Source: Methanogenium sp. S4BF (lineage in GTDB: Archaea; Halobacteriota; Methanomicrobia; Methanomicrobiales; Methanomicrobiaceae). Taken from it: 40,000 bases of DNA. The translations under genes were made by a program, and so were the position numbers. The notes under the pieces are model-generated. The model was not told the origin of the DNA and ran no database searches. It worked only from the letters and a program-made list of their open reading frames with translations. Location of the stretch: NCBI RefSeq assembly GCF_029633965.1, contig NZ_CP091277.1, positions 763,940 through 803,939 on the forward strand, written 5' to 3'. Of the stretch, positions 1 through 20,059 are shown piece by piece; position 1 is the stretch's first letter, and the number at the start of each line of letters is the position of its first letter.

Positions 1-915
1 GGATATGTCACAGGTACTACTAGATATAAATTAAACCAAGGTTCAATGAAAAAAATCCCTATTATTCTCCCCCCTCTCGCCGAACAGCACCGCATCGTCA
101 CCGCCATCGAGGCGCTCTTCGCCCGGCTGGACGCGGCGGAGGCACGGCTGGAGCGGGTGCCGGGCATTGTGCATCAGTTCCGACAGGCCATTTATTGGGG
201 GCTTCTAACAGATTTTGAAAACTCAAAAAAATATGTAATTAAAGATGTAATTGTTGGCACACCCCAAAACGGGTTATACAAACCGTCTTCAAAATATGGG
301 GCTGGGACGCCAATAATTAGGATCGATTCATTTTATGAGGGTAAAATTACGGATCAAATAATACTAAAAAGATTGGACTGTTCTGAATCAGAAATAAATA
401 AATTCCAACTATATGATGGAGATATTTTAATTAACCGAGTAAATAGTCTTGATTTTCTCGGTAAATGCGCCCTTATTGAAAATATTGAAGAAAATACTGT
501 TTTTGAATCGAATATGATGCGGATAACCCCTAATACAAACATCATCAATCAAAAATATCTAAATCATGTCCTATGCAGCCCTTTTATAAAAAATCAGATC
601 TTGAAAAAGGCAAAAAATGCTGTCAATCAATCGAGTATAAATCAAAAAGATGTAACTTCTTTAGTTATTTATTGTCGCCCTCTCCCCGAACAACATGAAA
701 TAGCCCGGCGCGTCGATGCCCTCTTTTCTCTCGCCGACCAGATTGAGGCAAATGTCGCAGCTGCGAAGGACCGTACCGCAAAACTCTGCCAGTCAATTCT
801 TGCCCAGGCATTCTCCGGGCAGCTGGTGCCAACCGAGGCGGAACTGGCCCGGCGGGAGGGGCGTGAGTATGAGGATGCAAATACTCTTTTAATGAGAATC
901 AAGGCAGAAAAATGA
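1..915 (+). CDS. hsdS: Type I restriction-modification specificity subunit HsdS, 5' end cut by the window edge
   Basis: The frame is open from nt 1 (GYVTGTTRYKLNQGS precedes the listed Met). Two HsdS conserved spacer helices flank a variable target-recognition domain: PPLAEQHRIVTAIEALFARLDAAEARLE, and RPLPEQHEIARRVDALFSLADQIEANVAAAKDRTAKLCQSILAQAFSGQL. The conserved parts look GC-rich and the TRD (about 190-665) looks AT-rich. Confidence 0.85.
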   Translation, partial: GYVTGTTRYKLNQGSMKKIPIILPPLAEQHRIVTAIEALFARLDAAEARLERVPGIVHQFRQAIYWGLLTDFENSKKYVIKDVIVGTPQNGLYKPSSKYGAGTPIIRIDSFYEGKITDQIILKRLDCSESEINKFQLYDGDILINRVNSLDFLGKCALIENIEENTVFESNMMRITPNTNIINQKYLNHVLCSPFIKNQILKKAKNAVNQSSINQKDVTSLVIYCRPLPEQHEIARRVDALFSLADQIEANVAAAKDRTAKLCQSILAQAFSGQLVPTEAELARREGREYEDANTLLMRIKAEK

Positions 916-1484
916 ACACAATATTTCTAAATTTCAGAGCAGATATTTTTTCAGTTCATCCAAACATTATGAAGTTTGAAAAGGAAATCTGTCATTTCAC
1001 TCCTTTTGATGGTGAGAAAGTCGCGGTTTTCTCTCAGGATGGAAAACTGATTAAAGAATTTGAGGCCGAGTATAACTTGAATAGGGAATTAATTACTGAA
1101 ATTCCTGTAGAATTTGATTCGGAATTAAGCGGAAACATTCTTACTCACAATCACCCATCCGGCACATCATTTGGCAAAAATGATTTAATGACGGCTTCCT
1201 CCATCCAATTGCAAGAAATTCGTGTTGTAGGAAAATGTGGTTTGTATTCGATGAAACCAAAGGGAAATATGTGGCCGATTTCAGAGGATATGGGAAATTA
1301 TTTTGATGCAATTAATACTAATTCTAAATTTCAATCAGAACTTAACGATATCCAATTTTCCGCTGATTTCTATTTAAATTCCAAAGATATTTATCTCGAC
1401 ATGTTACGAATCAAATCAGAACTTCGTTGTGAAAAAATAGCTGGTGCATTTGGACTTGACTATAAAAAATCCAGTTGGGGGTAA
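912..1484 (+). CDS. RadC-like JAB/MPN-domain protein (divergent metalloprotease motif)
   Basis: The start overlaps the hsdS stop (ATGA, 912-915). The motif ILTHNHPSGTSFGKNDL matches the RadC/JAB HNHPSG signature. An upstream GEKVAVFSQDGKLI segment could supply the conserved Glu. The spacing to the Asp is one residue shorter than the canonical HxHx7Sx2D. Confidence 0.55.
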   Translation: MNTIFLNFRADIFSVHPNIMKFEKEICHFTPFDGEKVAVFSQDGKLIKEFEAEYNLNRELITEIPVEFDSELSGNILTHNHPSGTSFGKNDLMTASSIQLQEIRVVGKCGLYSMKPKGNMWPISEDMGNYFDAINTNSKFQSELNDIQFSADFYLNSKDIYLDMLRIKSELRCEKIAGAFGLDYKKSSWG

Positions 1485-1628
1485 AGCCAATATGGTCAGA
1501 TCCTTCAAATTTGTTTGCCGGATGTTTAGTAAATAAAAATGTAAGACTCTTGGATAATCAAAACCAGAGTCATGTGTTCTTTTGAATAGAGTAATAGTCA
1601 ATATTTAATTAACCGCATGTCTTGACGG

Positions 1629-1820
1629 TTAGACGTATCTACTGACAATCCCGATAACACCAAGTCCTCCAAAGATAAGCCCAATACCAATTCCACCCCA
1701 AATTGCGAGTTGTCCTGCTGCGGCGTTAACGTTGGTGGCACATAATAAAATTCCAGCTATGATAAGGACGGTTACAATTCCCGTTCCTCCCATACCAAGT
1801 CCAAAAATACTTTGAGTCAT
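1629..1820 (-). CDS. Small glycine-zipper membrane protein (2 predicted TM helices)
   Basis: The minus-strand sequence reads gggaggtgaacATG, a strong Shine-Dalgarno-like GGAGGTG 3 nt before the ATG at 1820. The listed ORF starts 6 nt earlier at a GTG. The product is almost entirely G/I/L/A/V with repeated GxxxG (GLGMGGTGIV, GGIGIGLIFGGLGVIGIV). Confidence 0.5.
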   Translation of the reverse strand: MTQSIFGLGMGGTGIVTVLIIAGILLCATNVNAAAGQLAIWGGIGIGLIFGGLGVIGIVSRYV

Positions 1821-2058
1821 GTTCACCTCCCGTTCAATTTTTTACGTGTTTTTTCCTGGAACCTGAAACATCAATAAAAGTTTTATTATAGCATCATTAA
1901 CATCTTTAGCATTGTAAGAATATGGCTGGAATTGAAAGGACTATTCACATTATCCCACTTGGTCATGAAATTGATCGTGCGGTAATCACATTTGATGATA
2001 CGACAGTTGATCAGGTTTACATCCTTACCGGGCTCAAAGAACGAATTCCCGAATTGAT

Positions 2059-2718
2059 TTGAGCAAAAAACAACTCTATTACGCTAAAAAAGTAAGAGAA
2101 AAATTACAGGAAAAAGGCATATCTGTTACATGTATTCATGTGAACCTCTTCGATTTACGTGAAGTAATGAAAACAATTTCAAAAATAATCGTAGAAGAAA
2201 AAGCGAAAAATAACCGAATTTTTGTAAACATGTCAGCTGCAGGGAGGCTAACATCAGTGGCAGCAACACTTGTTGGGATGGCTCATGATGTTCAGGTGTA
2301 TTACGTCCATGCTGATGAATATCCTGATGATGAAAAAATCAGAGAAGTTCACGGTTTAAGCATTTGTTCTTCTCAGGAAATTACTCAATTATCAAATTTT
2401 AAAATTGTAATGCCTGACTCTGAAGGTTTAGAAATACTTCTTTTTCTCACGCAAAGAGAGACCGCCAGAATGAGCGATATTTTGGAAATGATGCATGATA
2501 AAAATATTGAAGGTTTCGAGGAGGATTTTAAAATGATTGAACAGTTTAAGAAAAAAAGAAGTGTCCAGAGCAGGCAATTAATGAAACTGGATAAAACGAT
2601 TATTGCTCGGTTAGAAAAAAATGGATTTGTTTTTCGAACCAAAAAGGGGAGAGCTACGTATGTTTCAATAACCGAATCAGGAATTTATGCAGCACATATC
2701 AGTGGGATGATGGAATAA
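2059..2718 (+). CDS. Csa3/CARF-like Rossmann domain plus C-terminal wHTH regulator, apparently missing its first beta-strand by frameshift
   Basis: NMSAAGR fits the CARF-type [DN]-x-[ST]-x3-[RK] loop. The C-terminus (LEILLFLTQRETARMSDILEMM ... IIARLEKNGFVFRTKKGRATYVSITESG) reads as a winged helix. The expected N-terminal strand (MAGIERTIHIIPLGHEIDRAVITF..VDQVYILTG) is encoded at 1922-2062 in a different frame. The listed start is a TTG. Confidence 0.5.
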   Translation: MSKKQLYYAKKVREKLQEKGISVTCIHVNLFDLREVMKTISKIIVEEKAKNNRIFVNMSAAGRLTSVAATLVGMAHDVQVYYVHADEYPDDEKIREVHGLSICSSQEITQLSNFKIVMPDSEGLEILLFLTQRETARMSDILEMMHDKNIEGFEEDFKMIEQFKKKRSVQSRQLMKLDKTIIARLEKNGFVFRTKKGRATYVSITESGIYAAHISGMME

Positions 2719-2809
2719 TTACTGTTATTAATAAACACAATATCATTTTTCAGAAGAATGCTTCGCTATGCGTTTAGTTCAACAGACACGATAAAAGTGA
2801 TTTTCAATA

Positions 2810-2838
2810 GTGGCATTTTTTGTAACTAACTATAACCC
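2810..2838. repeat. Diverged copy of the casposon right-end terminal inverted repeat (right terminus of an older, left-lying element)
   Basis: gtggcattttttgtaactaactataaccc matches 17158-17186 (gtggcgtttttcacaactaactataaccc) at 25/29 positions in direct orientation. The preceding aata is also shared. Confidence 0.75.
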
Positions 2839-2852
2839 TACCCAAAAATGCG
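2839..2852. repeat. Target-site duplication, left copy
   Basis: tacccaaaaatgcg versus gaaccaaaaatgcg at 17187-17200 (12/14 identical). It lies directly outside the left terminal inverted repeat. Confidence 0.7.
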
Positions 2853-2881
2853 GGGTTATAGTTAGTTGTGAAAAACGCCAC
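2853..2881. repeat. Casposon left terminal inverted repeat
   Basis: gggttatagttagttgtgaaaaacgccac is the exact reverse complement (29/29) of 17158-17186. Confidence 0.9.
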
Positions 2882-3069
2882 TTTTACTGAATTTGCAAAT
2901 TTATTTTTCATCTCATCTTTGTCTTGATATTTCCCATAAATAATATAATGAAATTAATTTATGGCATATAAGGACATCCAAGAAATTATACTACCCATCA
3001 TACTACTAACAATACTTATAATATTATATCATTATAAATATTTAATGTCTGAAACGATAATATATTAGT

Positions 3070-4023
3070 ATGTCAAACCACCCGAAGGTTTTCATTAGTC
3101 ATGCTAGTGAGGATAAAGAGAGATTTGTTGTAAAGTTTGCAGAAAGACTGCGTTATGATGGGATAGAAGCTTGGTTAGATAAATGGGAAATATTGCTGGG
3201 TGACAGTCTAGTCCAGAAAATATTTGATGAAGGTTTAGAGCAATCTGATATCATTGCAATAGTAATATCAAAATATAGTATAACTAAAAAATGGGTTAAA
3301 GAAGAGCTTGATTTAGCAGTATATAGAAAAATTGAGGGTAAATGCAGAATAATTCCAATCATTATTGATGATTGCATTGTACCAGAATCAATCAAGCACA
3401 CACTACATGTGAAAATTCAAAATCTCAACAACTATGATGCTGAATACAATGAAATTCGTTCCACAATATTTGGTGAAACAAAAAAGCCTCCACTAGGTGA
3501 ACTTCCACAATATCTAACTGCCGTTCAGATGCACATTGACAAGTTTACACATACTGACAACTACATCGCGGGCATTATTTGTGAAAAGGCATTAGAAGAT
3601 GATTATCCATTTTTTGTAACTCCCACTCAAATATTGCCAATTGTTAGTGGAAATGGCATAACAGAGGATGAATTTTATGATACTATTGAAATAATGGATG
3701 GACGGGGGTATATTGAAGCTGAACAATGTTATGGTGGAGAGATTCCAGCAATTAAAATATCAACATTATTACTTGAAAAGTATTGCAGACAATGCATTGA
3801 TGATTATGACAATAAAGTGGTATCTGTGATTTCAGCCATCGTCAATGAAAATAAGTTGGAAAATTCTGAAATTGCTGCTGAATCTGGAATCAAGCAATCA
3901 ATTGTATCACACATTCTAATCTATCTGGATAATATTGGAAAAATTAAAACCACAACAGCACATGAAGGAGTAGTACTAGTCCACCCCAATAATATGGCAG
4001 AACTGAAGCGATTACTGCGATAG
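3070..4023 (+). CDS. TIR-domain protein with an uncharacterised C-terminal (wHTH-like) domain
   Basis: The N-terminus KVFISHASEDKERFVVKFAERLRYDGIEAWLDKWEILLGDSLVQKIFDEGLEQSDIIAIVISKYSITKKWVKEELDLA follows the prokaryotic TIR pattern: FISH-x-x-x-D, W-D with G-D-S-L, a vvlS strand, and W-x-x-E-L with the candidate catalytic Glu. The C-terminal ~180 aa end in a helix-turn-helix-like stretch (SEIAAESGIKQSIVSHILIYLDNIGKIK). The gene is visibly AT-rich. Confidence 0.8.
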   Translation: MSNHPKVFISHASEDKERFVVKFAERLRYDGIEAWLDKWEILLGDSLVQKIFDEGLEQSDIIAIVISKYSITKKWVKEELDLAVYRKIEGKCRIIPIIIDDCIVPESIKHTLHVKIQNLNNYDAEYNEIRSTIFGETKKPPLGELPQYLTAVQMHIDKFTHTDNYIAGIICEKALEDDYPFFVTPTQILPIVSGNGITEDEFYDTIEIMDGRGYIEAEQCYGGEIPAIKISTLLLEKYCRQCIDDYDNKVVSVISAIVNENKLENSEIAAESGIKQSIVSHILIYLDNIGKIKTTTAHEGVVLVHPNNMAELKRLLR

Positions 4024-4162
4024 AATGAAAATATAATCTATTTTCTGAGGAAGATTAAAAATAATCCTCATGATTACTCTAAGTTGTACTCATCTGGAAT
4101 GACATATTAAATAATTACTTTCACACCACGCGGATAAATATTAAAATATATTATTCTGATCC

Positions 4163-4447
4163 ATGGTTATGCATAAATTATTTAACATCTTCTTTGAAGA
4201 TCTACGAGTAACAATTTGTTTACTCATTGTTCTAGCTGCTCTTGCAGCATTTTTTGGCGCAATCGAACCAATTACAGAAAAATATGTTCAGGATGAAAAT
4301 TCAAAAGAAAACATCGAAAATATTGAATCAATTTCAATAAACGGATTCTCTCTTCTTCTTACTATCAGTGGAATTGGAACTGTTTTGGCTGTGATAGCTT
4401 GGTTTGCGGGTTTATTTGATGGAATCATAAGTATGATAAAAATATAG
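4163..4447 (+). CDS. Small two-TM membrane protein, hypothetical
   Basis: This 94-aa ORF has two hydrophobic helices (VTICLLIVLAALAAFFGAI and FSLLLTISGIGTVLAVIAWFAGLF) separated by an acidic loop. It is AT-rich like the upstream TIR gene. No clear ribosome-binding site is visible. Confidence 0.35.
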   Translation: MVMHKLFNIFFEDLRVTICLLIVLAALAAFFGAIEPITEKYVQDENSKENIENIESISINGFSLLLTISGIGTVLAVIAWFAGLFDGIISMIKI

Positions 4448-4451
4448 AAAT

Positions 4452-5963
4452 TCAACTCTTTTTCAACAAATCCCGCAACTCATCAAGATTAACCAATATC
4501 TGCTTCTCAATACCCTCAATTGTCTCAATGATCACTTCAGGAGGGTCATACTCAATCTCTTCATATTCAATCTCCTTATATCGCGAGATCGAGAGGTCAT
4601 AATTATTCTCCTTCACTTCATCATACGGCACATAGAAGCACTTGCCCTTCCGGTCTTCAGGCACCTCATCCCTCCGGCTCCTAAAGCGCTCGATGATATC
4701 AGGGATGTCACCCTTCCCGTCAATGAGCGTCCGTTTGTCATCCAGTGAAAATCCGTCTGCCTCCATATCATAGAACCAGACTTTCTCCGTTGTCCCACCC
4801 TTCGCAAAGATGAGCACAGCGGTGGAGACCCCTGCATACGGCCTGAATACACCGGACGGCATGGAGACAATACCTTCGACCTGGTTCTCCTCAAGGAGCA
4901 TCTGGCGGAGTTTCTTATGCGCCCGTGAACTCCCGAACATGACACCATCCGGCACGATTACGGCACACCGCCCTCCAATCGTCAGGAGATGAATCATCCG
5001 CTCCACAAACAGAAGCTCCGTCTTTGTCGTGGAAAGGCTCAGGCTGTCGTTAATATCACTCTTGTCGATACTCCCCTTGAACGGTGGATTGGCAAGCACC
5101 ACTGAATACCGCTCCTCCTCATTGTAGAGCTTGGAGAGTGTATCCTTCTGCTCAATCTTCGGCGCCTTGATCCCGTGGAGCATCATGTTCATGAGCGAGA
5201 TGCGGGCCATCGTGGAATCAAAATCATAGCCATAGAACGTATCGCTCCAGAGCTTCTCCCAGTGCCGCTGTTCAGTGATATTGTCCCCGATGAGATTGTG
5301 GTATTCGCCCTCACTGTCCACCTCCAGCATATCGGGACTGGTGTATTTCCGGATAATGTACTCATAGGCGTTGATCAGGAACCCTGCTGTTCCACAGGCA
5401 GGGTCACAGATACGGTCATTGACATCCGGTTCGACCAGTTCCACCATCATCCGGATGATATGCCGGGGCGTCCGGAACTGTCCGTTTTTCCCTGCGGTGG
5501 AGAGTTGGGAGAGAAGATACTCGTAGATGTCACCCTGCGTATCACGATTCTGTGCAGTGATGTCCATCTCATCGATAATGGCAACAGCCTCCTGCAGGAG
5601 GGACGGCTTTGGGATGATGAAGACCGCGTCCCGCATCTGGCGTGCGAAGAGTGTTTTCTCCCCGTTGTGCAGGTTCTTGATGAACGGGAAGACAACATCA
5701 CGGACATGCACGAGCATCTGTTCAGCAGGATAGTGCTTCCAGTTTGACCACCGGCACTCATCCTGTCCCTCAAAGATCGAGGTATAGGCGATGTCCCGTG
5801 CCCGTGCACGGTTCTGCTCGACCACATCCATGTCCTCCAGCCGCTTCATGAAGATGAGATAGGACATCTGTTCAATGGACTGGAGGGGGTTGGACATACC
5901 ACCGCTCCAGAAGCGATCCCAGAGGGTGTCTATCTTTGATTTAAGTTCGGGGGCGAGTTTCAT
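4452..5963 (-). CDS. hsdM: Type I R-M N6-adenine DNA methyltransferase subunit HsdM
   Basis: SAM-binding motif ICDPACGTAGFL, catalytic motif LANPPFKGS, and a typical HsdM N-terminal domain (KIDTLWDRFWSGGMSNPLQSIEQMSYLIFMKRLED). The start overlaps the hsdS stop by 4 nt. Confidence 0.92.
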   Translation of the reverse strand: MKLAPELKSKIDTLWDRFWSGGMSNPLQSIEQMSYLIFMKRLEDMDVVEQNRARARDIAYTSIFEGQDECRWSNWKHYPAEQMLVHVRDVVFPFIKNLHNGEKTLFARQMRDAVFIIPKPSLLQEAVAIIDEMDITAQNRDTQGDIYEYLLSQLSTAGKNGQFRTPRHIIRMMVELVEPDVNDRICDPACGTAGFLINAYEYIIRKYTSPDMLEVDSEGEYHNLIGDNITEQRHWEKLWSDTFYGYDFDSTMARISLMNMMLHGIKAPKIEQKDTLSKLYNEEERYSVVLANPPFKGSIDKSDINDSLSLSTTKTELLFVERMIHLLTIGGRCAVIVPDGVMFGSSRAHKKLRQMLLEENQVEGIVSMPSGVFRPYAGVSTAVLIFAKGGTTEKVWFYDMEADGFSLDDKRTLIDGKGDIPDIIERFRSRRDEVPEDRKGKCFYVPYDEVKENNYDLSISRYKEIEYEEIEYDPPEVIIETIEGIEKQILVNLDELRDLLKKS

Positions 5964-7189
5964 GGTATTAGTTCTCCGGTGAATGCTTTTGATTGAAGTA
6001 ATGCAAATAAATCAGCAATTTCCTGATTAGCTTTAGATTGATCTGTAAAGGCAGAATCAATGTGTTTTAGAGATTGAATGAATTTTTCTTGAAATAATAC
6101 CGGTGGCAACACAACAACACATTTCCTCAAGTCTTTAGTGTTAAAGCTAGCTTGATTCACTGCAGGTTTTGTGATCCTCTTTATTTGGTTCATAAAAAAT
6201 GTGGTTTTAAATTGTGCCACCAAAAAAAATGGGTTTACAAGCTTTCTATTGACATTAATTCGAAATATATTATGACCGACAATAGCTGGAGAATATTCTC
6301 CTTGATATACGGCACTTTTGCCTATTCGGCTAAGACTATTCACGTAATTTAACAGGATATCATCTTTCTTTAAAACATATCGAGTGATGTCTTCAGGCAC
6401 ATCAATGTACTTCAATTTTGTCGCTTTAATGGACATTCCATCATGAATTTCTCCTGAAGTAATGTTGACAGGCCCTTTTCCTTCTGCATTCAATCTTCGT
6501 GATGGGCCAGCTTCAACTTTCTGAATTATACTACCCAGAGTTACTTTTTCCCATCCCTTAGGATTCGTCACCGGGTCACCGAACATCTCCAGAAACACGC
6601 TCTGCACCAGTTCCTGCGTGAGCGCATCCGCATCCGCCCGCAGGCGCTGCGTTGCCTCTGCTTTTTCAAGAATGGCGACAATCTTGCGCTGGGTTTCCAG
6701 ATTTGGAATTGATAATTGTATTTTTCCCAATTCTTTTCTGGGAATACGTTTGCGTGTCGTTCCCCTAGAACGCCGAATAATTTCTTTTCTACATTCTGGA
6801 GAATTAATTGCATATTTCAGCCAGTTCGGATCTATCAATGGATTATCCGGACGCAGAATACAAACATCAACAGCTGTAATACATTTCTTCTCATTTCCAG
6901 GGAAGATGCATGCACGTCCTATTGGATCAGGCATACGAGAAATTAAAATATCCCCCTTTTTTAGGAAAGTGCAATTCAATTCTATCGCTTTTTCTAATGT
7001 TAAAAATTTGTTTGAATTAAATTCAAAATATCCATCTTTAATATCTGCAAGCTGTATCAATCGGACTTGACCAGATGGATCCTGATCCTTACTTTCAACC
7101 CAATCCCCATCCGTGAAAATTCCTTCACTTGATGTCAAGTTAACTATAGAATATTGAATACTTTCTTTATTATTCTCAATTATATTCAA
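5960..7189 (-). CDS. hsdS: Type I R-M specificity subunit HsdS
   Basis: Two target-recognition domains are separated by a central conserved helix (ETQRKIVAILEKAEATQRLRADADALTQELVQSVFLEMFGDP). The C-terminal conserved helix ends ...LLQSKAFTGELIP. It sits between hsdR and hsdM. Confidence 0.88.
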   Translation of the reverse strand: MNIIENNKESIQYSIVNLTSSEGIFTDGDWVESKDQDPSGQVRLIQLADIKDGYFEFNSNKFLTLEKAIELNCTFLKKGDILISRMPDPIGRACIFPGNEKKCITAVDVCILRPDNPLIDPNWLKYAINSPECRKEIIRRSRGTTRKRIPRKELGKIQLSIPNLETQRKIVAILEKAEATQRLRADADALTQELVQSVFLEMFGDPVTNPKGWEKVTLGSIIQKVEAGPSRRLNAEGKGPVNITSGEIHDGMSIKATKLKYIDVPEDITRYVLKKDDILLNYVNSLSRIGKSAVYQGEYSPAIVGHNIFRINVNRKLVNPFFLVAQFKTTFFMNQIKRITKPAVNQASFNTKDLRKCVVVLPPVLFQEKFIQSLKHIDSAFTDQSKANQEIADLFALLQSKAFTGELIP

Positions 7190-7192
7190 TCA

Positions 7193-10030
7193 TCACGCCT
7201 CCGCAACAAACAGTTCCCGTTCCAGTCCCTGACATATGCCAATGAACGCCCTGAGATCGCCCTCGTCAAACATCGGCAGCGGTGCGTTGATGCCAAAATT
7301 GGTGAACGGGGCATCCCAGAGATCTCTCATTTCTATATGCTTTTTGCGCATAAATACCGTCTGAATCGTCCTGATGAAGTGGAGCTGGTCGGCGGTGTAG
7401 TGCTTGTTGTTCTCAGCAATGAAGGTCTGGAACGCCTCCTCGATCTGCTCTTTCGGGTCGGGTGCCTTGTAGAGTCCCAACACAGATTTGATGAAATCAA
7501 CAAGCGTCCCCCGTGGCTGCCGGTAGCCTTTCTGCAGGACTTCCCCGGTGATGTCCACCCCTGCCTCGGTGAGGGTCTCCTCAAGACGGGAGAGGTCGGT
7601 CTCCGTGATTGTCTCATCGTTTGCGATCTTTTGGATGACCGGGTCTTCGGTTGCCATCTCGCGGATTCGTTCTTCCACCTTCTTGACAAACGCGGTGACA
7701 TAGGGAGGGGTGTCCTCGTTCACCTCCCAGATGCTGCGTTCCTCAATCACATCGCCCATGTCGATGACAATCGTCTGGGGCGTCTCCTTGGACATATACT
7801 TCATCAGCGGTGCGATATCAGAAACAAGCATCCGGGTATCCTCGAACGAGACACCCTTCCAGAACGATCGGGAGAGCACGTCATCCAGTTGCTCTTCCTT
7901 CTGCCGGACTTTTTCGAGGTTGCGGGGGAGGAGGTCAACCATCTCAGCGATGGCCTTCTTCTGCCGCTCTATCTCCTTGTCATTCCCTTCTAAGACAGCA
8001 AGCGCAAGCCGTTCGGTCTTGATCGTAAAGGACGCCTCCTTGAGATTGACACCCGTCTGGTAGCGCATCAGGGGCATCATATGGGATGTCAGGTATTCAA
8101 CCGGGTCAACGGCAATATTGTCCCAGAGTTTGGGAGAGAGTGCTTTTGCAATCTCCTGTTCGTGTTCCCGCACACTCACGGAGTCGGAAGGCAGGGCACG
8201 GATATCGTCCTCAATTTTTGCCCGGATCACCGCAGCACGTTCCCCATCTCCCGCCTGTATCAACCGGTCAAGCTGCTTTACCCGCAGGAGAAAGATCCGA
8301 CTGGTAATAGCTTCGATGGGTTCGTTCTTCACCCCTTCCGGGTTCATGTTCCAGTAATCAAAGTTGTTCCAGAAATCGAAGACCTTGAAATACTCCTTCT
8401 TCCCGTTCGGGAGCCAGTCACGGTGTTTGCAGGCCGCATCCGCCCTTGTCCCCCTCCCTAGCATCTGCCAGAACTTGATCCTGGAGAAGACCGGTTTTGC
8501 AAAGACAAGGTTGCAGACCTCCGGTACGTCAATGCCGGTGTCCAGCATGTCGACCGATATGGCAACACGGGGGAATGACTCCTTCTCAAAGTCATGGATG
8601 AGTGCCTGTGCACGGGAATCCTCAGAGACAATAATGCGTGCGAGGTTCCCCTTGTATTCAGGATAGAGGTCATTGAACGCCTCATGAAGCCGGTTCGCAT
8701 GCTTCTTTGATATCGCAAAGAAGATCGTCTTCGCAGGAAGTGTGCCAGTCTCATCCATCTGGCAGTTATCCATGAACTCCCGGACAATTGCTTCAGACGT
8801 GCCCTTCACCGCGATCTTCTTCTCCAGAACAGAGCCATCGAAATCGATCTCGTCCGGGTCGATGCCCTGCTCGATGAGGCGGTTACGTTCGGTCTCGCTC
8901 AGGTCTGAGGGCTTCACCCCTTCAATCTGGAAGTGCGTCTGCGCACCCATGATATTCTTGCGGAAGTCACAGAGGATACCGTCTCGCACTGCCTCCTCAT
9001 ATGAGTAGAGAGCGGTTGGTGCCTGATCATCACACTGGAAGAACCGGAAGGTGTCACGGTCAACAAGGTCTGCCGGTGTTGCAGTCAGCCCGATCTGGAT
9101 GGCATCCAGATACGTGAAGACATCCCGCCATTTATTGTATATACTGCGGTGTGCCTCATCTGAGATGATGAGGTCAAACTCACCAGGCGAGATAAGATAC
9201 TGCCCGTTCTCATCTTTTTGGGTATAGATCTCCTGAAACGTCTGGATGGTGGAGACATAGAGCCGCTTCTCCTTGTTGAAGTTGCCGTGCAGGATTTTGT
9301 CCTTCGCCTCCTGCGGGAAGAACTCCTGAAACCCTTTGTTCCATGCCTGATCCCGCAGTGCCTTTCTGTCTGCGAGGAAGAGCACCCGGTGAGCACGGTT
9401 CTCCTGCATCAGGGCATCGATAATTGCCATCGCGACACGAGTCTTGCCCGTGCCCGTTGCCATCACAATCAACGCCTTCCGGTGTCCCTTCTGGATGTGC
9501 TCCACTATCCGTTTGACATTCTCGATACTCTTCGGGCGGTCAACAATATCGGTATTGACTCCTCTTGGTGTGTCCGGCTGAACCTGCTCGTTCTGGAAGC
9601 GAAGCCGCTCAAGGTCTTTGCGGGCGTAGAACCCGGTCACCAGACGGGGAGGATACCGCTGCCGATCCCAGAACCAGATCTCATAACCGTTTGTGAGAAA
9701 AATGAAGACATCCCGGCCCGTTTGCCTTTTGATGTCGTCTGCATATTTTTCTGCCTGCTTTTGACCGATATTGGGGTCTTTTGATGTCCGCTTTGCCTCG
9801 ATGATGGCAAGGGGATTATTCAGACTGTCCAGCAGGAGATAGTCAGCATATTTACTCTCACGATCATTCTTGAGTGTTTCATCAACAGTTTTGTAGGAAC
9901 AGGCATTGAAATCAGACTGCTTTGTATCAACCTCAGGGATGACATGCGAACGACTGTTCACATCCCAGCCCTGCTCCCTGAGTTGGACATCAATCTTTTG
10001 TTTCCTCGTCTGATGTTCATTGAGATCCAT
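7193..10030 (-). CDS. hsdR: Type I R-M restriction endonuclease/translocase subunit HsdR
   Basis: N-terminal PD-(D/E)xK-like nuclease motif (ADYLLLD...PLAIIEAKR), SF2 helicase Walker A (VMATGTGKTRVA) and DEAH box (LIISDEAHRS). The protein is 945 aa. Confidence 0.92.
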   Translation of the reverse strand: MDLNEHQTRKQKIDVQLREQGWDVNSRSHVIPEVDTKQSDFNACSYKTVDETLKNDRESKYADYLLLDSLNNPLAIIEAKRTSKDPNIGQKQAEKYADDIKRQTGRDVFIFLTNGYEIWFWDRQRYPPRLVTGFYARKDLERLRFQNEQVQPDTPRGVNTDIVDRPKSIENVKRIVEHIQKGHRKALIVMATGTGKTRVAMAIIDALMQENRAHRVLFLADRKALRDQAWNKGFQEFFPQEAKDKILHGNFNKEKRLYVSTIQTFQEIYTQKDENGQYLISPGEFDLIISDEAHRSIYNKWRDVFTYLDAIQIGLTATPADLVDRDTFRFFQCDDQAPTALYSYEEAVRDGILCDFRKNIMGAQTHFQIEGVKPSDLSETERNRLIEQGIDPDEIDFDGSVLEKKIAVKGTSEAIVREFMDNCQMDETGTLPAKTIFFAISKKHANRLHEAFNDLYPEYKGNLARIIVSEDSRAQALIHDFEKESFPRVAISVDMLDTGIDVPEVCNLVFAKPVFSRIKFWQMLGRGTRADAACKHRDWLPNGKKEYFKVFDFWNNFDYWNMNPEGVKNEPIEAITSRIFLLRVKQLDRLIQAGDGERAAVIRAKIEDDIRALPSDSVSVREHEQEIAKALSPKLWDNIAVDPVEYLTSHMMPLMRYQTGVNLKEASFTIKTERLALAVLEGNDKEIERQKKAIAEMVDLLPRNLEKVRQKEEQLDDVLSRSFWKGVSFEDTRMLVSDIAPLMKYMSKETPQTIVIDMGDVIEERSIWEVNEDTPPYVTAFVKKVEERIREMATEDPVIQKIANDETITETDLSRLEETLTEAGVDITGEVLQKGYRQPRGTLVDFIKSVLGLYKAPDPKEQIEEAFQTFIAENNKHYTADQLHFIRTIQTVFMRKKHIEMRDLWDAPFTNFGINAPLPMFDEGDLRAFIGICQGLERELFVAEA

Positions 10031-10123
10031 GCGTTACTCCATTGTGGATAGATATTAAATGAAAAGTTTATTCAAGTCAATAATTGACTCGTTTGGCACC
10101 ATACATCAATGTTATGGAATCTG

Positions 10124-10146
10124 TTTGATATTGCTCAATAATATCA
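10124..10146. promoter_or_regulatory. Perfect 8-bp stem / 7-nt loop inverted repeat between cas1 and hsdR
   Basis: ttgatatt-gctcaat-aatatcaa lies in the AT-rich 186-bp spacer between the cas1 stop (10217) and the hsdR start (10030). It could be a terminator or an operator, and the function is not established. Confidence 0.25.
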
Positions 10147-10216
10147 ACAATACTTCAACGTCAACACCACAAATTGGTTGAATTACCTCAACAGAAAAGA
10201 AAAATGAGAAAGAAAC

Positions 10217-11440
10217 TCAGACAGATAACGTCTCTTTTAGTTGATCCCATACCATCAACCGTTCAACAACGTGTTGATTGAGGGAAAACGGCTTCTCCGA
10301 CTCTGCGTTCTTTTTCATATAATGCAATGAACCTTTTGAGAAACCCAGTTTCTTCCAGTCAGCATACGAAATGCTGAGTATCTTCCTGCGTATCTCATCC
10401 GTATCAACCCTGTCAACCTGATACTCCGGCTTCATGAAACTCACCGACTGTTTCTTCCCGGTCAGATACTGCGCCAGCTCCCTGCCCTTCAGCACCATCA
10501 CATAACTCCACATCAGCTCTTTGCCCTGATACTCAACCGTCTTGTTGAACCATGCGTTGACCTCTTCTGTCATCTTGCGTGCACCCGTGGGCCGTAATCT
10601 CAGTGCATAGCTCTCCGTCCTGATAAAATCCTTCGCGGTCATCGCATCGCGCTCAACGAGGTTGATAACTGCCAGGTCAACAAGAAACCGAAACAACTCC
10701 TGCATATCATAAGCCAGACTGTTCTTGCCGGATTGCATCTCATGAAGGAATCCCACATGTGCATCAAGACCAACACTGTTGATGACCCTGAGACACTCTG
10801 CTTCGAGAAGGGCATACCCATAATTCAGCATGCAGTTGACCTGATCTCCCGCTCCTGAGGGCCGTGTGTGGTAACGTCCCGTCCGGCTCTCAAACTCATA
10901 CTTCTCAGGGATGACTTTGGCAAACTGTTTCCAGTAGTGCTGGGCAACGGCACCCTCAACTCCCATCACTTCCCGGATCAACTTTGCGTCTTTCAGACTC
11001 TTTGGTTCATAGGGAATCACAGGGTCAACACCGGGATACCGCTGGTGCAGATAGTCAAGGACGATCTGTGTGCGGTCAAACTTGGATTCGATGAACTTCT
11101 TCGCCAGTTTCAGTCGCAGTTTCTTATCGTCAAATGCATGGTATTGTACAAACTTCGTCTTCACCTGCACACTCTCCGGAGGGAGCATTGTGGTGAGCAT
11201 CGTTCCATCCCAATCAAGAATGGACACCTGCACATTGTGTTTGACAAGCCACCGGATGGCTTCAAGACTGAGGTTGCCGCTCCTCCCGTAGATCACAATG
11301 GAATCGATATCAATGCGCTGTGGATGGAAGACATACTTCGCAGGCTCCTCTTCGGTAGAGAACCGTCCGTCCGTGATATGAAGGTGTGCACGATCCACTT
11401 TCATGCTGATGCCATGCCCGTTGAGAAGCAGGAACTTCAT
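10217..11440 (-). CDS. cas1: Cas1-family casposase (Cas1 integrase core plus C-terminal HTH)
   Basis: Cas1 catalytic signature residues are present: Glu in REVMGVEGAVAQHYW, His in LDAHVGFLHE, and an acidic pair in SLAYDMQELFRFLVD. It also has NYGYALLE. The C-terminal extension (ILSISYADWKKLGFSKGSLHYMKK) reads as an HTH, as described for casposases. Confidence 0.9.
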   Translation of the reverse strand: MKFLLLNGHGISMKVDRAHLHITDGRFSTEEEPAKYVFHPQRIDIDSIVIYGRSGNLSLEAIRWLVKHNVQVSILDWDGTMLTTMLPPESVQVKTKFVQYHAFDDKKLRLKLAKKFIESKFDRTQIVLDYLHQRYPGVDPVIPYEPKSLKDAKLIREVMGVEGAVAQHYWKQFAKVIPEKYEFESRTGRYHTRPSGAGDQVNCMLNYGYALLEAECLRVINSVGLDAHVGFLHEMQSGKNSLAYDMQELFRFLVDLAVINLVERDAMTAKDFIRTESYALRLRPTGARKMTEEVNAWFNKTVEYQGKELMWSYVMVLKGRELAQYLTGKKQSVSFMKPEYQVDRVDTDEIRRKILSISYADWKKLGFSKGSLHYMKKNAESEKPFSLNQHVVERLMVWDQLKETLSV

Positions 11441-12351
11441 GACCTCATCCCCTTGAACAACCCGTTCAGTTCAGGTGCACCCCTGATGCCTTCCATCGGG
11501 TCGGTTGCATCAAGCGGGTCACTCTCATGCTCTGTTGCATACTTGCGTATCTCTGCGAGAGTATCAGCCTCTTTCACCCGGTCTCCCTTTCGCAGTTCAC
11601 GTTCCAGATTGAATAGTTCCGTGCGGTGTGATTCTATGATAAAGGCGGTGAATGGTGTCAGATAGTCGTTCTTCAGAGATTCAAAGTCATCTGCGTTTCG
11701 GGCATCCTCAATGAGCTGAGATACCACCCTTTCGTCCCTCAGCTTTCCGAGCATGCGGATATGGTGATTACGCATCTGTGCATTTTGCGGCACACTAATG
11801 TCAAACTGTGTAAGGCTTGCACGCAGAAGAACCCTGAACCGGTCTTTGTCAAAAGGCGTGATTTCCCGGATTATGAAATAGTCATAGAGAATTTCGGTAG
11901 CTGCTTTGGCAATATCAGCGTCTTTGGTCAGCAGGTTGACAATCGCGTCTAACTGTTTCGGTGTGAGGATGTATTTGTCACGGTAAAGCCGGATCTCATC
12001 GAGAACCATCCTGATATCCGCTGTGTCACCTTTGGAAAGCAGGTCAAATAATGTGTCAAGATGCTTTTTCCGTTCTGCAAAGGATTTCAGCGTGAGATAA
12101 ACCGCTCTATTGTTGGATTCTTTGATTCCATAGGCTATAAGGTCTGGATTTTGAATTTTTGCAATCATGCCTGCTTTGTTCAAATATTCAATTGCCCTGT
12201 ACAGGCTTGGTTCACTAAAACCTCTTTCACCTTTTTGATTCTCCACGATCTCTCTCACAAGTTTGGAGGTTCTTGTTGGGGGATGAGTGGAGAGATACTG
12301 GAGTATTGCACTATCACTTTTAACATCTGACATTTGACTACCAACATTCAC
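11437..12351 (-). CDS. wHTH DNA-binding protein with an all-helical C-terminal domain, translationally coupled to cas1
   Basis: Its stop overlaps the cas1 start (ATGA at 11437-11440). The N-terminus ILQYLSTHPPTRTSKLVREIVENQKGERGFSEPSLYRAIEYLNKAGMI has a winged-helix pattern. The rest is predicted helical with no recognisable catalytic motif. Confidence 0.6.
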   Translation of the reverse strand: MNVGSQMSDVKSDSAILQYLSTHPPTRTSKLVREIVENQKGERGFSEPSLYRAIEYLNKAGMIAKIQNPDLIAYGIKESNNRAVYLTLKSFAERKKHLDTLFDLLSKGDTADIRMVLDEIRLYRDKYILTPKQLDAIVNLLTKDADIAKAATEILYDYFIIREITPFDKDRFRVLLRASLTQFDISVPQNAQMRNHHIRMLGKLRDERVVSQLIEDARNADDFESLKNDYLTPFTAFIIESHRTELFNLERELRKGDRVKEADTLAEIRKYATEHESDPLDATDPMEGIRGAPELNGLFKGMRS

Positions 12352-12377
12352 TATTATCTTTATATGATATAATATGT

Positions 12378-12409
12378 GCTATCATATTAGCTATCATTAC
12401 TAACGATAG
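12378..12409. promoter_or_regulatory. Candidate operator in the divergent casposon control region
   Basis: gctatcat occurs twice (12378-12385 and 12390-12397). An imperfect 19-bp palindrome ctatcattactaacgatag (12391-12409, 16/19 self-complementary) lies between the divergent wHTH-cas1 and RHH-polB gene sets, in AT-rich TATA-like sequence. Confidence 0.35.
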
Positions 12410-12432
12410 TGTCTGCTCTCCTTCATGAATCT

Positions 12433-12582
12433 ATGAAACCAAAAGAAAAGACCAACAAACTGGTCATTTCTGTTTCGCCGTATCTGAAGGCGAAGATCGT
12501 TGAGACCGCAGACCGCTATGGATGCTCCCAGGCTGAAGTCCTCAGGATGGCGTTCATCCGGATGCTGGAGGCAGACAGATGA
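12433..12582 (+). CDS. Ribbon-helix-helix (CopG/MetJ-like) DNA-binding protein, 49 aa, below the ORF-track cutoff
   Basis: Manual translation gives MKPKEKTNKLVISVSPYLKAKIVETADRYGCSQAEVLRMAFIRMLEADR. It has a beta-strand (KLVISVSPYL) followed by two helices, the classic RHH layout. Its stop overlaps the next ATG (ATGA at 12579-12582). Confidence 0.6.
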   Translation: MKPKEKTNKLVISVSPYLKAKIVETADRYGCSQAEVLRMAFIRMLEADR

Positions 12583-13220
12583 GCCGCAAACGGTTCTCTC
12601 AGGAGTATCGCACCTATGGCGAGTGGCTCAACGCACAACCACGGGAATCACGGTATGCAAAACGTATCATCCGGTTCCACGAACGGTTTCCCGGCAAGAG
12701 CCTGAAAGAGCTGAAGGGTCTCCGCGTCCGGGACTATGACCTGAGTAATAACCCGTGGAATGATCTCTCCCCTGAAGAGAAGCGTGAACGTCTTCTCTCC
12801 CTTGAACTGCTCCGTGCCATGCGGAACGATGAACACTTCTCCCCAAAGCTCAGGGAGCTGGGTCTTTCACGCGACACCGCTGTCAAACACCTTGGCCTGA
12901 ATCTCCGGAAAGAACGTGGATACTGGCACATCAACAAAACAGACCGCATAGAAGTTGAGATGATGATCTATGACCGTGAGAAGGGTCATATTTCGATTCC
13001 TGTTGCAAACTCCGTAGACCGGACACGGATTGCACGATACCATGCCTATGTCCGGTTCGCAATTGAGGATAACAACCCTGCACTCCTGAAGCGGTTTGAG
13101 CAGATGGTTGTTATTGATGCAACCGGTATCCGCTATCGGTTTGAGACCGATGTGGAACGCCTGTATGAGATCAAGGATGCAGAAGAAGAACCGGAATTTT
13201 TCGAGATCTATCAGTCATAG
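12579..13220 (+). CDS. Hypothetical casposon protein (213 aa)
   Basis: A long ORF coupled to the RHH gene upstream and followed 5 nt later by the HNH gene. Its composition resembles the casposon core. I recognise no motif. Confidence 0.6.
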   Translation: MSRKRFSQEYRTYGEWLNAQPRESRYAKRIIRFHERFPGKSLKELKGLRVRDYDLSNNPWNDLSPEEKRERLLSLELLRAMRNDEHFSPKLRELGLSRDTAVKHLGLNLRKERGYWHINKTDRIEVEMMIYDREKGHISIPVANSVDRTRIARYHAYVRFAIEDNNPALLKRFEQMVVIDATGIRYRFETDVERLYEIKDAEEEPEFFEIYQS

Positions 13221-13225
13221 GAGCG

Positions 13226-13600
13226 ATGCATATGGACAAAAATACCTACCGAAAAACAACAGAGAAGATGAAACGGTCAGGGCAGACCGGACACTGCTGC
13301 GTAATGTGTGGAGAAGATAATCCAGCCCTCCTTGAGATGCACCATGTCGATGGAAGAGCGGCATCTGAGAAGACTGTTCCCCTCTGCAAGAACTGTCACG
13401 CAAAGGTCACAATGGAGCAGAACCGTTTCCCTCCGAAAGCCCGTGCTGCCAATGGCCTTCAGGCAGAACAGATTGCATTCTGGCTCCTGAGCCTTGGTGC
13501 ACTTCTGAAATATGTTGGTCAGTCACTCATCGAATTTGCCCATGAGGTTCAGCAGAATGCCGGCGTTAGCAGTGCGTGGATACACTCGAAAACTCAATAA
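13226..13600 (+). CDS. HNH endonuclease
   Basis: CCVMCGEDNPALLEMHHVDGRAASEKTVPLCKNCHAKV gives CxxC ... HH ... CxxCH, the zinc-finger-braced HNH motif. Confidence 0.85.
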   Translation: MHMDKNTYRKTTEKMKRSGQTGHCCVMCGEDNPALLEMHHVDGRAASEKTVPLCKNCHAKVTMEQNRFPPKARAANGLQAEQIAFWLLSLGALLKYVGQSLIEFAHEVQQNAGVSSAWIHSKTQ

Positions 13601-16241: not shown

Positions 16242-17017
16242 TTCCCTTCTTCTTTTGAATACGCACGTTCTCTTAGGACATTAATGATGTCTGGGTTCCA
16301 AGCTTCTTTATTTCCATGGAGAGATTTTCTTTCAATTATTGCCTGTGCACAACTCCGAAGTTCTTCAGCCCCTTGCGGCTTCCAATCATTTCTCAGTGCC
16401 CATGCTTTTAATGAATCTGGATCAAATAATTCTCCATTGTTTCTTAGAATTCTTAACAACTCAACTGTTTCTCGTTTATCTCTTGGATTTGATAGACCCG
16501 TTGACAAATTAACTCTCCTTGTAAGCGTTTTCATTGCTTCTTCGACAACAGGATTTTTAATCAAATCTTCGAGTTCACTGTGTTCTTCTCCAAGTATTAT
16601 TGGGTTCCATGTTTTCTTCCATTCACCTATTTCATCCATATACCACGGAACAACCACAGCCAGATCAAGATTTTTTACAGAATCTAAAATATCTAACATT
16701 TTCTTGTTTGGATAAACACAAAGAACGATTTCTGATGATGAATAAGAATTGAATGTTTTAATTGTTTCACATTTTAAGACTAAATTATCCGCAATTTTCA
16801 ATTTTTTACCTTTTGAGAGGTTTTTGCAAGGTTTTTCACCTAAAGCCGCGTCAATATCAGTTCCATTAAGCTGGTGTTTGGTTGGTATGAATAATGTAAC
16901 TTCTTTTAAACGTTCAGATTTTTCATTAATCTTAATAATCAGTATCAAAGCTTCGATAATTGACCCCATTTCTCCAAATTTTGGGGGGACGACATATCTT
17001 GAGATATCAGGTGTCAT
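16238..17017 (-). CDS. Hypothetical protein (259 aa), AT-rich cargo gene at the casposon right end
   Basis: An uninterrupted ORF convergent with polB, with overlapping stops. A consensus archaeal TATA box sits about 26 nt upstream of its ATG. Alternating strand/helix pattern in the N-terminal half (VTLFIPTK, IVLCVYPN, LAVVVPW) and a helical C-terminal half. No recognisable motif. Confidence 0.55.
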   Translation of the reverse strand: MTPDISRYVVPPKFGEMGSIIEALILIIKINEKSERLKEVTLFIPTKHQLNGTDIDAALGEKPCKNLSKGKKLKIADNLVLKCETIKTFNSYSSSEIVLCVYPNKKMLDILDSVKNLDLAVVVPWYMDEIGEWKKTWNPIILGEEHSELEDLIKNPVVEEAMKTLTRRVNLSTGLSNPRDKRETVELLRILRNNGELFDPDSLKAWALRNDWKPQGAEELRSCAQAIIERKSLHGNKEAWNPDIINVLRERAYSKEEGN

Positions 17018-17039
17018 AACAATGAATTATTCACTTAGC

Positions 17040-17047
17040 TATTTAAA
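17040..17047 (-). promoter_or_regulatory. TATA box for the 259-aa cargo gene
   Basis: The minus strand reads TTTAAATA, centred about 26 nt upstream of the ATG at 17017. This implies a leaderless or near-leaderless transcript. Confidence 0.4.
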
Positions 17048-17157
17048 TGAAAGTCAGATTATAATGCAGTCATGTTTTCAAAAAAAAGATTGTTTAGGTA
17101 AATTTAGATTGTCACATCCTAAATGGATGACTTTGAGTAAAAGGGTTGAACAAAATA

Positions 17158-17186
17158 GTGGCGTTTTTCACAACTAACTATAACCC
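17158..17186. repeat. Casposon right terminal inverted repeat
   Basis: gtggcgtttttcacaactaactataaccc is the exact reverse complement of 2853-2881. Confidence 0.9.
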
Positions 17187-17200
17187 GAACCAAAAATGCG
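17187..17200. repeat. Target-site duplication, right copy (overlaps the tRNA-Leu 3' end)
   Basis: gaaccaaaaatgcg matches 2839-2852 at 12/14. It covers the oligo-T tract downstream of the tRNA, the discriminator base and the last 3 acceptor-stem nucleotides. Confidence 0.7.
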
Positions 17201-17280
17201 AGGGGAGGGATTCGAACCCGCGAACTCCTACGAGACTGGGCCCTAAACCCAGCGCCTTTGACCGACTCGGCAACCCTCGC
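17197..17280 (-). tRNA. tRNA-Leu (anticodon UAG), class II with long variable arm
   Basis: The reverse complement reads GCGAGGGTTGCCGAGTCGGTCAAAGGCGCTGGGTTTAGGGCCCAGTCTCGTAGGAGTTCGCGGGTTCGAATCCCTCCCCTCGC plus discriminator A. It has a 7-bp acceptor stem and an anticodon stem CTGGG/CCCAG with loop TTTAGGG, giving anticodon TAG. It also has a long variable arm and a GTTCGAATC T-loop. CCA is not encoded, and a TTTTT tract follows. Confidence 0.9.
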
Positions 17281-17392
17281 TCACGCAATACAGAAATTGC
17301 AGTCCAGTATTAGCGCTAAAAAGGTATAATTCCTTGTATCTTCTGGAAATAATCAGGGGAAAGAACCGGAAATGAAACGGGAAAGAACCGTG

Positions 17393-17400
17393 AAAAAAAA
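17393..17400 (-). terminator. Oligo-T tract downstream of the methyltransferase gene
   Basis: A run of 8 T on the minus strand starts 26 nt after the stop at 17426. Archaeal terminators are typically oligo-T tracts. Confidence 0.35.
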
Positions 17401-17425
17401 GAGAAATACCGTAATCCAATATCCT

Positions 17426-19381: not shown

Positions 19382-19573
19382 CCTGCCCGGCTATATACAT
19401 ACTGGCAGAATCCAAAACAGAACCCATTACCTTATCAAATCAGCCGTATTCTTCTATTATCAGAGATATAATTCGTGCAATTCACCAATTTGTCATGGAA
19501 ACGGTGATTTTACTGTGACAATGGGAAATGTTAAACATATGAAAGGGTATCTGTTATTATTCGGAGTTAATAA

Positions 19574-20059
19574 ATGCCGGGTGTGGTTGTAAACATCATC
19601 ATTGCCGTCCTTGTCTGCTGGATTCTTTTTATTGCAATTGATATTATATTCAAACTCCCGGAAAAAGGCGGGGTGAGCGGTGCTGCTGCTATTGGCACTG
19701 CAATTGCAGAGGAACGGGGTTCACTCAATGGCGGATATATGATGGGAAATATCGTATGTTCGCCGGACGCTTCGGCAGGGACCCTCCTTGCCGCCTGCGG
19801 GGTGTTCGTTGCCGGCATCCCCGGCGGGCTCGTTGCGGCACTATTGGTATATATCGGAAACAGAATCTGCCATGACCCCGGGTATGCAGGCACAACCGGT
19901 GCACTCTGTGCAACGTTTGTCATCACCGGATTTGGCCTCATCGGCGTAACTCCTGACGCCTTTATCGCGGGCATGGTCATCGCCATCCTCACCATCCAGG
20001 GCATGTCCCATCCGTATGCCAGCCATCTTCTCACGAAACTCTGGGGGATGCGGGCATGA
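19574..20059 (+). CDS. Energy-converting hydrogenase Eha, first membrane subunit (EhaA position)
   Basis: A hydrophobic 161-aa protein and the first gene of the overlapping-gene run. A GGAG sits 9 nt upstream of the ATG. Its stop overlaps the next start (ATGA). Confidence 0.5.
   Translation: MPGVVVNIIIAVLVCWILFIAIDIIFKLPEKGGVSGAAAIGTAIAEERGSLNGGYMMGNIVCSPDASAGTLLAACGVFVAGIPGGLVAALLVYIGNRICHDPGYAGTTGALCATFVITGFGLIGVTPDAFIAGMVIAILTIQGMSHPYASHLLTKLWGMRA

Follow-up and report, generated by a model that had tools for sequence, protein, structure and literature searches.

Tandem arrays of family-2 casposons at tRNA-Leu have been described in Methanosarcina sp. 2.H.T.1A.3, 2.H.T.1A.6, 2.H.T.1A.8, 2.H.T.1A.15 and 2.H.A.1B.4 (Krupovic et al., 2016; PMC4779613). 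In these arrays, two units abut at the 3' end of the tRNA gene with only a common 14-bp target copy between them, one of the units is inactivated, and the target, which starts with CGCA, is present in copies that carry substitutions. The CGCA motif and a 14-bp TSD are known for Methanosarcina family-2 casposons in general, and Methanosarcina mazei contains solo-TIRs, leftover termini beside a CGCA-type target that are read as degradation products of full elements (PMC4779613). Tandem structures have also formed in vivo, by integration of a mini-casposon at an occupied target in M. mazei Go1 (PMC10359463). In work on the casposases of M. mazei Go1 (PMC10359463) and A. boonei (PMC5137440; PMC6614799), the new element enters on the tRNA or 'leader' side and gives rise to TIR-target-TIR junctions. 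A parallel outside the casposons is provided by serial Tn7-like insertions at attTn7, where one safe site is reused and older copies decay, leaving layered ends and cargo.

The tRNA-Leu(UAG) locus of Methanogenium sp. S4BF, analysed here within a window of 40,000 nucleotides (the whole stretch of DNA under study), resembles the Methanosarcina arrays in each of the properties listed above. It differs from them in its Methanomicrobiales host, in the opposite orientations of its two units and in its cargo; its older unit, moreover, is known from one end. As at the solo-TIRs of M. mazei, a leftover terminus lies by a CGCA-type target, but here it keeps at least 1.2 kb of casposon-derived sequence and so is not a bare solo-TIR. 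Compared with the M. mazei and A. boonei enzymes, the Methanogenium casposase is known here from sequence alone. Relative to Tn7, a Cas1-family casposase takes the place of TnsABCD and a tRNA 3' end that of the glmS terminator, and the end architecture is unrelated. The best explanation of the locus, to which we assign a probability of roughly 0.78, is that an older family-2 casposon (element A) was joined by a second (casposon B) beside the tRNA, A now decaying and B intact; it is from within this explanation that we infer the order of events. The features concerned are listed below in window coordinates.

1..1484, plus strand: hsdS, running off the left edge of the window and ending at 915, and a 190-aa ORF at 912-1484; putative A cargo
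1615..2805, plus strand: A end module, recognised by blastn to the M. cariaci casposon end and by Pfam PF19810 and PF22665
1629-1826, minus strand: 65-aa membrane ORF of the A module
1922-2718, plus strand: DUF6293/HFX_2341-like gene of the A module, frameshifted
2806..2838, plus strand: element A terminus, made up of the 29-nt TIR copy at 2810-2838 and four shared inner bases, AATA
2839..2852, no strand: middle 14-bp target copy, common to A and B (TACCCAAAAATGCG; in tRNA orientation CGCATTTTTGGGTA)
2853..17186, no strand: casposon B, 14.3 kb, apparently intact
2853..2881, minus strand: B left (tRNA-distal) TIR, a perfect inverted copy of 17158-17186
3070-4023, plus strand: TIR-domain protein (B)
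4452-5963, minus strand: type I R-M hsdM (B)
5960-7189, minus strand: type I R-M hsdS (B)
7193-10030, minus strand: type I R-M hsdR (B)
10217-11440, minus strand: casposase Cas1 (B; PF01867, E 2e-65)
13226-13600, plus strand: HNH (B)
13512-16241, plus strand: PolB (B; PF03175 and PF00136)
17158..17186, plus strand: B right (tRNA-proximal) TIR
17187..17200, no strand: tRNA-proximal 14-bp target copy (GAACCAAAAATGCG), its final 4 nt being the tRNA 3' end
17197..17280, minus strand: tRNA-Leu(UAG), the integration target

Casposon B is a family-2-type casposon of 14.3 kb: it encodes a casposase and a PolB, is bounded by TIRs with a TSD of ~14 bp, and sits at a CGCA-type target at the 3' end of a tRNA gene. 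Its TIRs form a perfect pair (29/29, 0 mismatches), and a search that tolerated up to three mismatches returned these two perfect copies only, with no match in shuffled windows. The repeat search of the window extends their pairing to 33 nt at 97% (inverted repeat I1, 2853-2885/17154-17186). The casposase is 60-69% identical to those of Methanolobus, Methanococcoides and Methanosarcina. PolB is of the protein-primed-type family B, and its homologues are casposon PolBs, including that of Methanosarcina sp. 2.H.A.1B.4. The accessory genes give weak matches (HNH, E 0.006-0.02; HEAT_2, E 0.024).

Beyond the left end of B, across the middle target copy, stands a third terminus. The original prediction had matched 2810-2838 (GTGGCATTTTTTGTAACTAACTATAACCC) to the right terminus of B at 17158-17186 (GTGGCGTTTTTCACAACTAACTATAACCC) at 25 of 29 positions, and direct reading and the repeat search both bear this out. 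The mismatches fall at positions 6 and 12-14, the outermost 15 nt being identical, and a composition-aware estimate puts the number of matches of 25/29 or better that would arise by chance, over the whole window and both strands, at ~6e-7. The same relationship appears in the repeat search as a direct repeat (D2, 2806-2855 vs 17154-17203, 86%) and, against the left end of B, as an inverted repeat (I2, 2806-2838/2853-2885, 33 nt, 85%, 14-nt spacer). No A-type variant of the TIR occurs in the metagenome or viral collections. The parallel had originally been drawn over 2806-2855 and 17154-17206, through the repeat, the target copy and a following gggg; the repeat and target copy hold, but the gggg is coincidental, being the start of the B terminus (GGGTTATAG) after the left copy and part of the tRNA acceptor stem (AGGGG) on the right.

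Because the A terminus, the target copy and the left terminus of B abut, 2810-2881 forms a 72-bp quasi-palindrome (29+14+29), which agrees with the imperfect palindrome of 29-bp arms around a 14-nt spacer that had been described. Folding of 2800-2890 as ssDNA, proposed as a check, gives the expected hairpin (predicted dG -20.8 kcal/mol, z -6.3). Wherever two elements with TIRs abut, geometry makes such a structure inevitable. The further suggestion that it could serve as a hairpin, a cruciform or a substrate for recombination found no supporting evidence, and geometry alone accounts for the palindrome. No curated RNA family matches at this position; the only hits, to miRNA-precursor models, score 30-32 bits where the gathering scores are 86-100. 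They reflect a generic hairpin, and a known RNA family was rejected as a candidate.

The comparison that gives the third terminus its context comes from the 90%-identity cluster of the B casposase, which includes two assemblies of Methanogenium cariaci (loci L086 and L091). M. cariaci carries one complete casposon at the orthologous tRNA-Leu(UAG) (L086 3127-17989), both of whose TIRs are identical to those of B at 29/29 positions. Read outwards from the tRNA, its proximal TIR is followed by two small genes, by PolB and HNH, and then by three more small genes and Cas1. Beyond Cas1 come a 1,529-aa cargo gene, ORFs of 134 and 63 aa, an intact HFX_2341/DUF6293 gene of 265 aa, ~90 nt and the distal TIR. 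By blastn, window 10134-16217 matches the core of this element at 92.9%, with conserved synteny, and the element has the same orientation at the tRNA as B. Its other end matches A: window 1603-2838 aligns with L086 16751-17989 on the same strand at 90.1% over 1,241 nt, the A terminus aligns to the distal TIR (L086 17961-17989), and the alignment stops exactly at the last TIR base. Gene order is likewise common to both, with a TM ORF on the minus strand, DUF6293 on the plus strand, ~90 nt and the TIR.

On this homology, ~1615-2838, comprising the membrane ORF, the DUF6293 gene, the subterminal DNA and the terminus, is a casposon end module. A has both a casposon-type terminus abutting a 14-bp CGCA-type target copy and, next to it, internal sequence with homology to a genuine casposon, and the proposal that 2810-2838 is a real casposon end is upheld by 90% module homology that ends exactly at the terminus. 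The module is turned toward the tRNA in S4BF but away from it in M. cariaci. The casposon modules are closer between the two genomes (90-93%) than are the host flanks (78-82%), which indicates that the A module and B were acquired after the hosts split.

Homology that runs up to the exact terminus makes serial integration the best reading. A would have been the first to insert at the tRNA-Leu(UAG) 3' end, oriented the other way round from the M. cariaci element. The related casposon B would have inserted later, between the tRNA and A, a position that follows because the casposase reads the tRNA-side 'leader' together with the 14-bp target. The outcome would be the A terminus, one target copy and the B terminus abutting one another, after which A would have decayed by frameshift and terminus drift, to a state in which no intact cas1 or polB is detected among the listed homologues. 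An older A, a common target copy and a younger B beside the tRNA had been put forward from the outset, and both the end-module homology and the published data support that scheme. The A and B ends show no subterminal similarity beyond ~33 nt, so A is not a copy of B, an origin that was considered and rejected.

The state of A is seen in its coding sequence and at its terminus. A 1-nt deletion at ~2039/2040, in an A-rich run, splits the DUF6293 gene into ORFs at 1922-2062 and 2059-2718, and the numbering of S4BF protein accessions is consistent with the absence of a protein record for this gene. Substitutions relative to M. cariaci are distributed 10/10/44 over the three codon positions; this strong third-position bias indicates that the gene evolved under purifying selection and that the frameshift is a late lesion. 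The A terminus matches at 25/29 and its subterminal DNA at 83%, and the four TIRs that bound B and the M. cariaci element are all identical. Identity of these four live TIRs despite ~7% divergence of the cores points to constraint on live termini. A frameshifted DUF6293 gene, a drifted terminus and relaxed constraint together indicate that A is decaying.

Whether A retains core genes bears on how complete it is. The second cas1/polB pair that had been predicted is not seen: neither the best 120 listed homologues nor the 90%-identity clusters contain a second S4BF Cas1 or PolB. The sole S4BF casposase (WFN35245.1) and PolB (WFN35250.1, L1S32_03775) among the listed homologues both lie within B, a placement made from accession numbering relative to WFN35238.1 (L1S32_03710). 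The best 120 homologues reach down to ~59% identity, below which divergent copies escape, as do pseudogenes. A single Cas1 and a single PolB among the listed S4BF homologues mean that A is at best defective; it is not an intact autonomous casposon, and it is presumably truncated or pseudogenised further left.

To the left of the end module, window 1-1602 has no homologue in M. cariaci or in any other casposon locus retrieved. The 190-aa ORF at 912-1484 is 100% identical to the hypothetical protein L1S32_03710, has one distant homologue (52%) among 5.8 billion proteins, and has no relative on the contigs of the genome collection that were scanned. Its original label as a JAB gene lacks Pfam support (no match at E <= 0.1) and goes back to an HNHPSG motif, which is reminiscent of RadC/JAB proteins. 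The hsdS gene at 1-915 has only an unrelated 41% match in viral contigs; it is 27% identical to the HsdS of B, and on this low identity the idea that the two hsdS genes are duplicates was rejected. Of the genes first attributed to A, the CARF-like (DUF6293) gene is confirmed by the 90% module homology, whereas hsdS and the 'JAB' gene have no counterpart in any of the casposons compared. By position, by low G+C (0.36-0.41 in 1-1602 and 0.33-0.41 across window 1-4000, against ~0.53 in the host) and by analogy with the casposon cargo slot, hsdS and the 190-aa ORF are putative cargo of A. Alternatively, A might be no more than a short end fragment, to which unrelated DNA (window 1-1602) has become joined.

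These observations bear on how much of a second element is present. A could be a structurally complete casposon whose cas1 and polB are pseudogenised or very divergent, which would make the locus a true tandem array. Its layout, with hsdS (+), the 190-aa ORF (+), the TM ORF (-), DUF6293 (+) and the TIR, mirrors the cargo (+), 63-aa ORF (-), DUF6293 (+) and TIR of M. cariaci, where the cargo is flanked by cas1 on one side and the end module on the other. Multiple stops interrupt the polB of one copy in the published arrays (PMC4779613), and protein searches are blind to such pseudogenes. A complete A would imply a left inverted terminus (GGGTTATAGTTAG..., plus strand) and a further CGCATTTTT-type target copy. 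The listed homologues and 90%-identity clusters, with their single Cas1 and PolB for S4BF, speak against it, as does the sister species, where the older element at this site is a truncated relic and not a full copy; a complete A is possible but doubtful. The 'tandem casposon array' originally proposed stands as far as serial insertion goes and was overstated as to a complete second unit. At the opposite extreme, 2810-2838 would be a solo remnant, and 1-2809 unrelated chromosome or another kind of integrated element, for example a tyrosine-integrase island that uses this tRNA-Leu, as in M. mazei. The literature has examples at tRNA-Leu of both solo-TIRs and co-resident integrase elements (PMC4779613), and window 1-1602 is without a casposon homologue, but the adjoining 1.2 kb matches a casposon end module at 90%, and this homology stops exactly at the terminus. 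This casposon-derived sequence excludes a bare solo remnant on core chromosome for 1615-2838. The G+C of window 1-4000 is not that of the host chromosome, and an att-like direct repeat of the tRNA-Leu 3' end, which would accompany an integrase island, does not occur in the window. A solo remnant is therefore highly improbable.

The three termini could also go back to a single M. cariaci-like casposon that was rearranged by inversion or by intramolecular transposition, and not to two acquisitions. The core of B (93%) and the A module (90%) are about equally diverged from their counterparts within the one M. cariaci element, and with respect to the core the end module has the opposite orientation, as this origin would have it. 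B, however, ends distally in a complete and perfect terminus of its own, carries distal cargo that is unrelated, and has a target copy; inversion alone creates neither a third terminus nor an additional target copy. Both orientations at tRNA-Leu are, moreover, known from independent insertions (PMC4779613), and we consider a rearrangement very unlikely. Serial insertion of A and then B remains the preferred reading.

Layering of this kind is not confined to S4BF. The sequence GGGTAATAGTTATCTTGTAATTTTGCAAC comes after the distal target copy in M. cariaci and directly after the tRNA-Leu trailer in a Methanomicrobiaceae MAG (L004). The relic TIR that it contains, R (GGGTAATAGTTATCTTGTAATTTT(T)GCAAC), matches the live TIRs of the metagenome casposons L092 and L093, which are of a different subtype. 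Within the relic regions (L086 17990-19650; L091 18001-19670; L004 11495-16290), only C-terminal fragments of polB are found behind R (L086 ~19466-19643, E 2.5e-15; L004 ~16128-16289), and DUF3375/DUF4194 (Wadjet-like) genes follow them. In L004, copies of the IS630 and IS21 families separate R from the polB fragments. The M. cariaci site is thus an intact young casposon, a target copy and a truncated old casposon, and R in M. cariaci and L004 is nearer to the solo-TIR state. A metagenome contig (L101) provides another head-to-head junction of TIR, 14 nt and TIR, and two further loci (L102 and L103) have an R-like relic past the distal target copy. Sites occupied in layers, with termini left behind, recur within this casposon group. 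For S4BF, the predicted outer junction of A would read, on the plus strand, ...GATAACTATTACCCAAAAATGCG and then the terminus, with an outer target copy CGCATTTTTGGGTA that would run into relic sequence ATAGTTATCTTG.

The contig with the second head-to-head junction comes from a sediment metagenome and has further peculiarities (L101 1-1420 and 6480-6620; also L099). The 3' end of polB is fused there to the 3' end of cas1, an internal deletion that removes most of both genes, so that the element is probably non-autonomous. The deleted element is followed by the TIR/14 nt/TIR junction and then by a second element, which starts with an hsdM 3' end related to the hsdM of B. In three other loci (L098 6720-6875, L100 1-155 and L097 170-275), a B-type terminus stands beside a fragment resembling a tRNA 3' end (…GGTTCGAATCATAACCCTCG…). 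The fragment lies ~70 nt inside an R-type terminus, and both termini point in one direction, toward a real tRNA; the R-type subterminal region may carry a target-like tRNA fragment.

The target copies themselves are unequal. With tRNA-Leu(UAG) at 17197-17280 on the minus strand, the target overlaps the last four nucleotides of the tRNA. The middle copy at 2839-2852 (TACCCAAAAATGCG) and the copy at 17187-17200 (GAACCAAAAATGCG) agree at 12 of 14 positions; in tRNA orientation the tRNA-side copy reads CGCATTTTTGGTTC and the middle copy CGCATTTTTGGGTA, both beginning with CGCA. The copies flanking B thus differ at 2/14 positions although its two 29-nt termini are perfect, and since simple duplication of a 14-bp target predicts identical copies, plain staggered-cut duplication leaves the difference unexplained. 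Other casposons give 11/14 (M. cariaci, L086 3113-3126 vs 17990-18003), 12/14 (L093) and 13/14 (L081), L092 alone having identical copies (14/14). The differences between paired copies fall in the tRNA-distal part.

The in vivo study in M. mazei reported PCR products that had the donor target copy of the casposon in place of the tRNA-side target. The authors propose a circular intermediate with one target copy and caution that the donor-target PCR products could be an artefact, so that donor-target transfer is tentative there (PMC10359463). A transfer of this kind would fit S4BF, in which case the middle copy would be resident and the tRNA-side copy (...GGTTC) imported. The middle copy (...TTTTTGGGTA) resembles the trailer-plus-relic sequence of L004 and M. 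cariaci (TTTTTGGGTAATAG). Alternatively, non-identical target copies may stem from recombination between neighbouring or incoming casposons.

The junction of A terminus, 14-bp target and B terminus is built like the TIR-target-TIR joint in the circular intermediate hypothesised in the M. mazei work, and the outer 15 nt of the defective A are intact. It is conceivable, if improbable, that casposases act on such joints and that this junction is a casposase-reactive hot spot, at which A and B would be mobilised as a composite defence island of ~30 kb, A would be trans-mobilised, or end and cargo modules would be exchanged between neighbouring casposons. Were this so, it would explain the mosaic in which a single M. 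cariaci element has its counterpart partly in the core of B and partly in the end module of A. It could also explain the frequency of non-identical target copies.

Between cas1 and the distal terminus, close casposons (Cas1 86-100% identical) carry differing cargo. In S4BF this slot (3070-10030) holds the type I R-M system and a TIR-domain/wHTH protein, and in M. cariaci (L086 11591-16180) a 1,529-aa protein. The metagenome casposon L092 has a 1,224-aa SIR2_2 protein at 13085-16759, L081 a 1,800-aa nSTAND-like NTPase and a Fic-like protein at 11326-18131, and L096 a TBP-like gene at 8614-9144. The cargo mostly looks like defence-type genes, and since it differs among close casposons, the slot appears to be exchangeable.

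On the other side of the integration site, the SAM-methyltransferase gene by tRNA-Leu (window 17426-18178; L001-L025) has a G+C of 0.45, below that of the host. Its relatives are 75-87% identical in scattered Methanoculleus, Methanoregula, Methanospirillum and Methanolinea, and 42% identical in Methanogenium marinum. In the genome collection, the methyltransferase adjoining the tRNA is at best 87% identical, and the tRNA is kept in 4 of 80 loci. At one locus (L017), the methyltransferase lies near a type I R-M system that is 68-72% identical at the DNA level to hsdM and hsdR of B. The SAM-methyltransferase may itself be horizontally mobile.

Tandem casposons, solo-TIRs and the in vivo formation of tandem structures are already published, and what is new here is the host lineage. 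The interest of the locus is accordingly modest: it introduces no new principle, and its value lies mainly in the comparative series and in the non-identical target copies. Layered casposon insertion at the tRNA-Leu 'leader', an arrangement that has been invoked as a model for the origin of CRISPR arrays, is extended from Methanosarcina to Methanogenium and thus to the Methanomicrobiales. Three genomes now form a series at one orthologous site, with a relic only (L004), a relic and an intact casposon (M. cariaci), and a decaying and an intact casposon (S4BF), and the frequent mismatch between the two target copies of one element bears on the still unsettled mechanism of casposon excision and integration.
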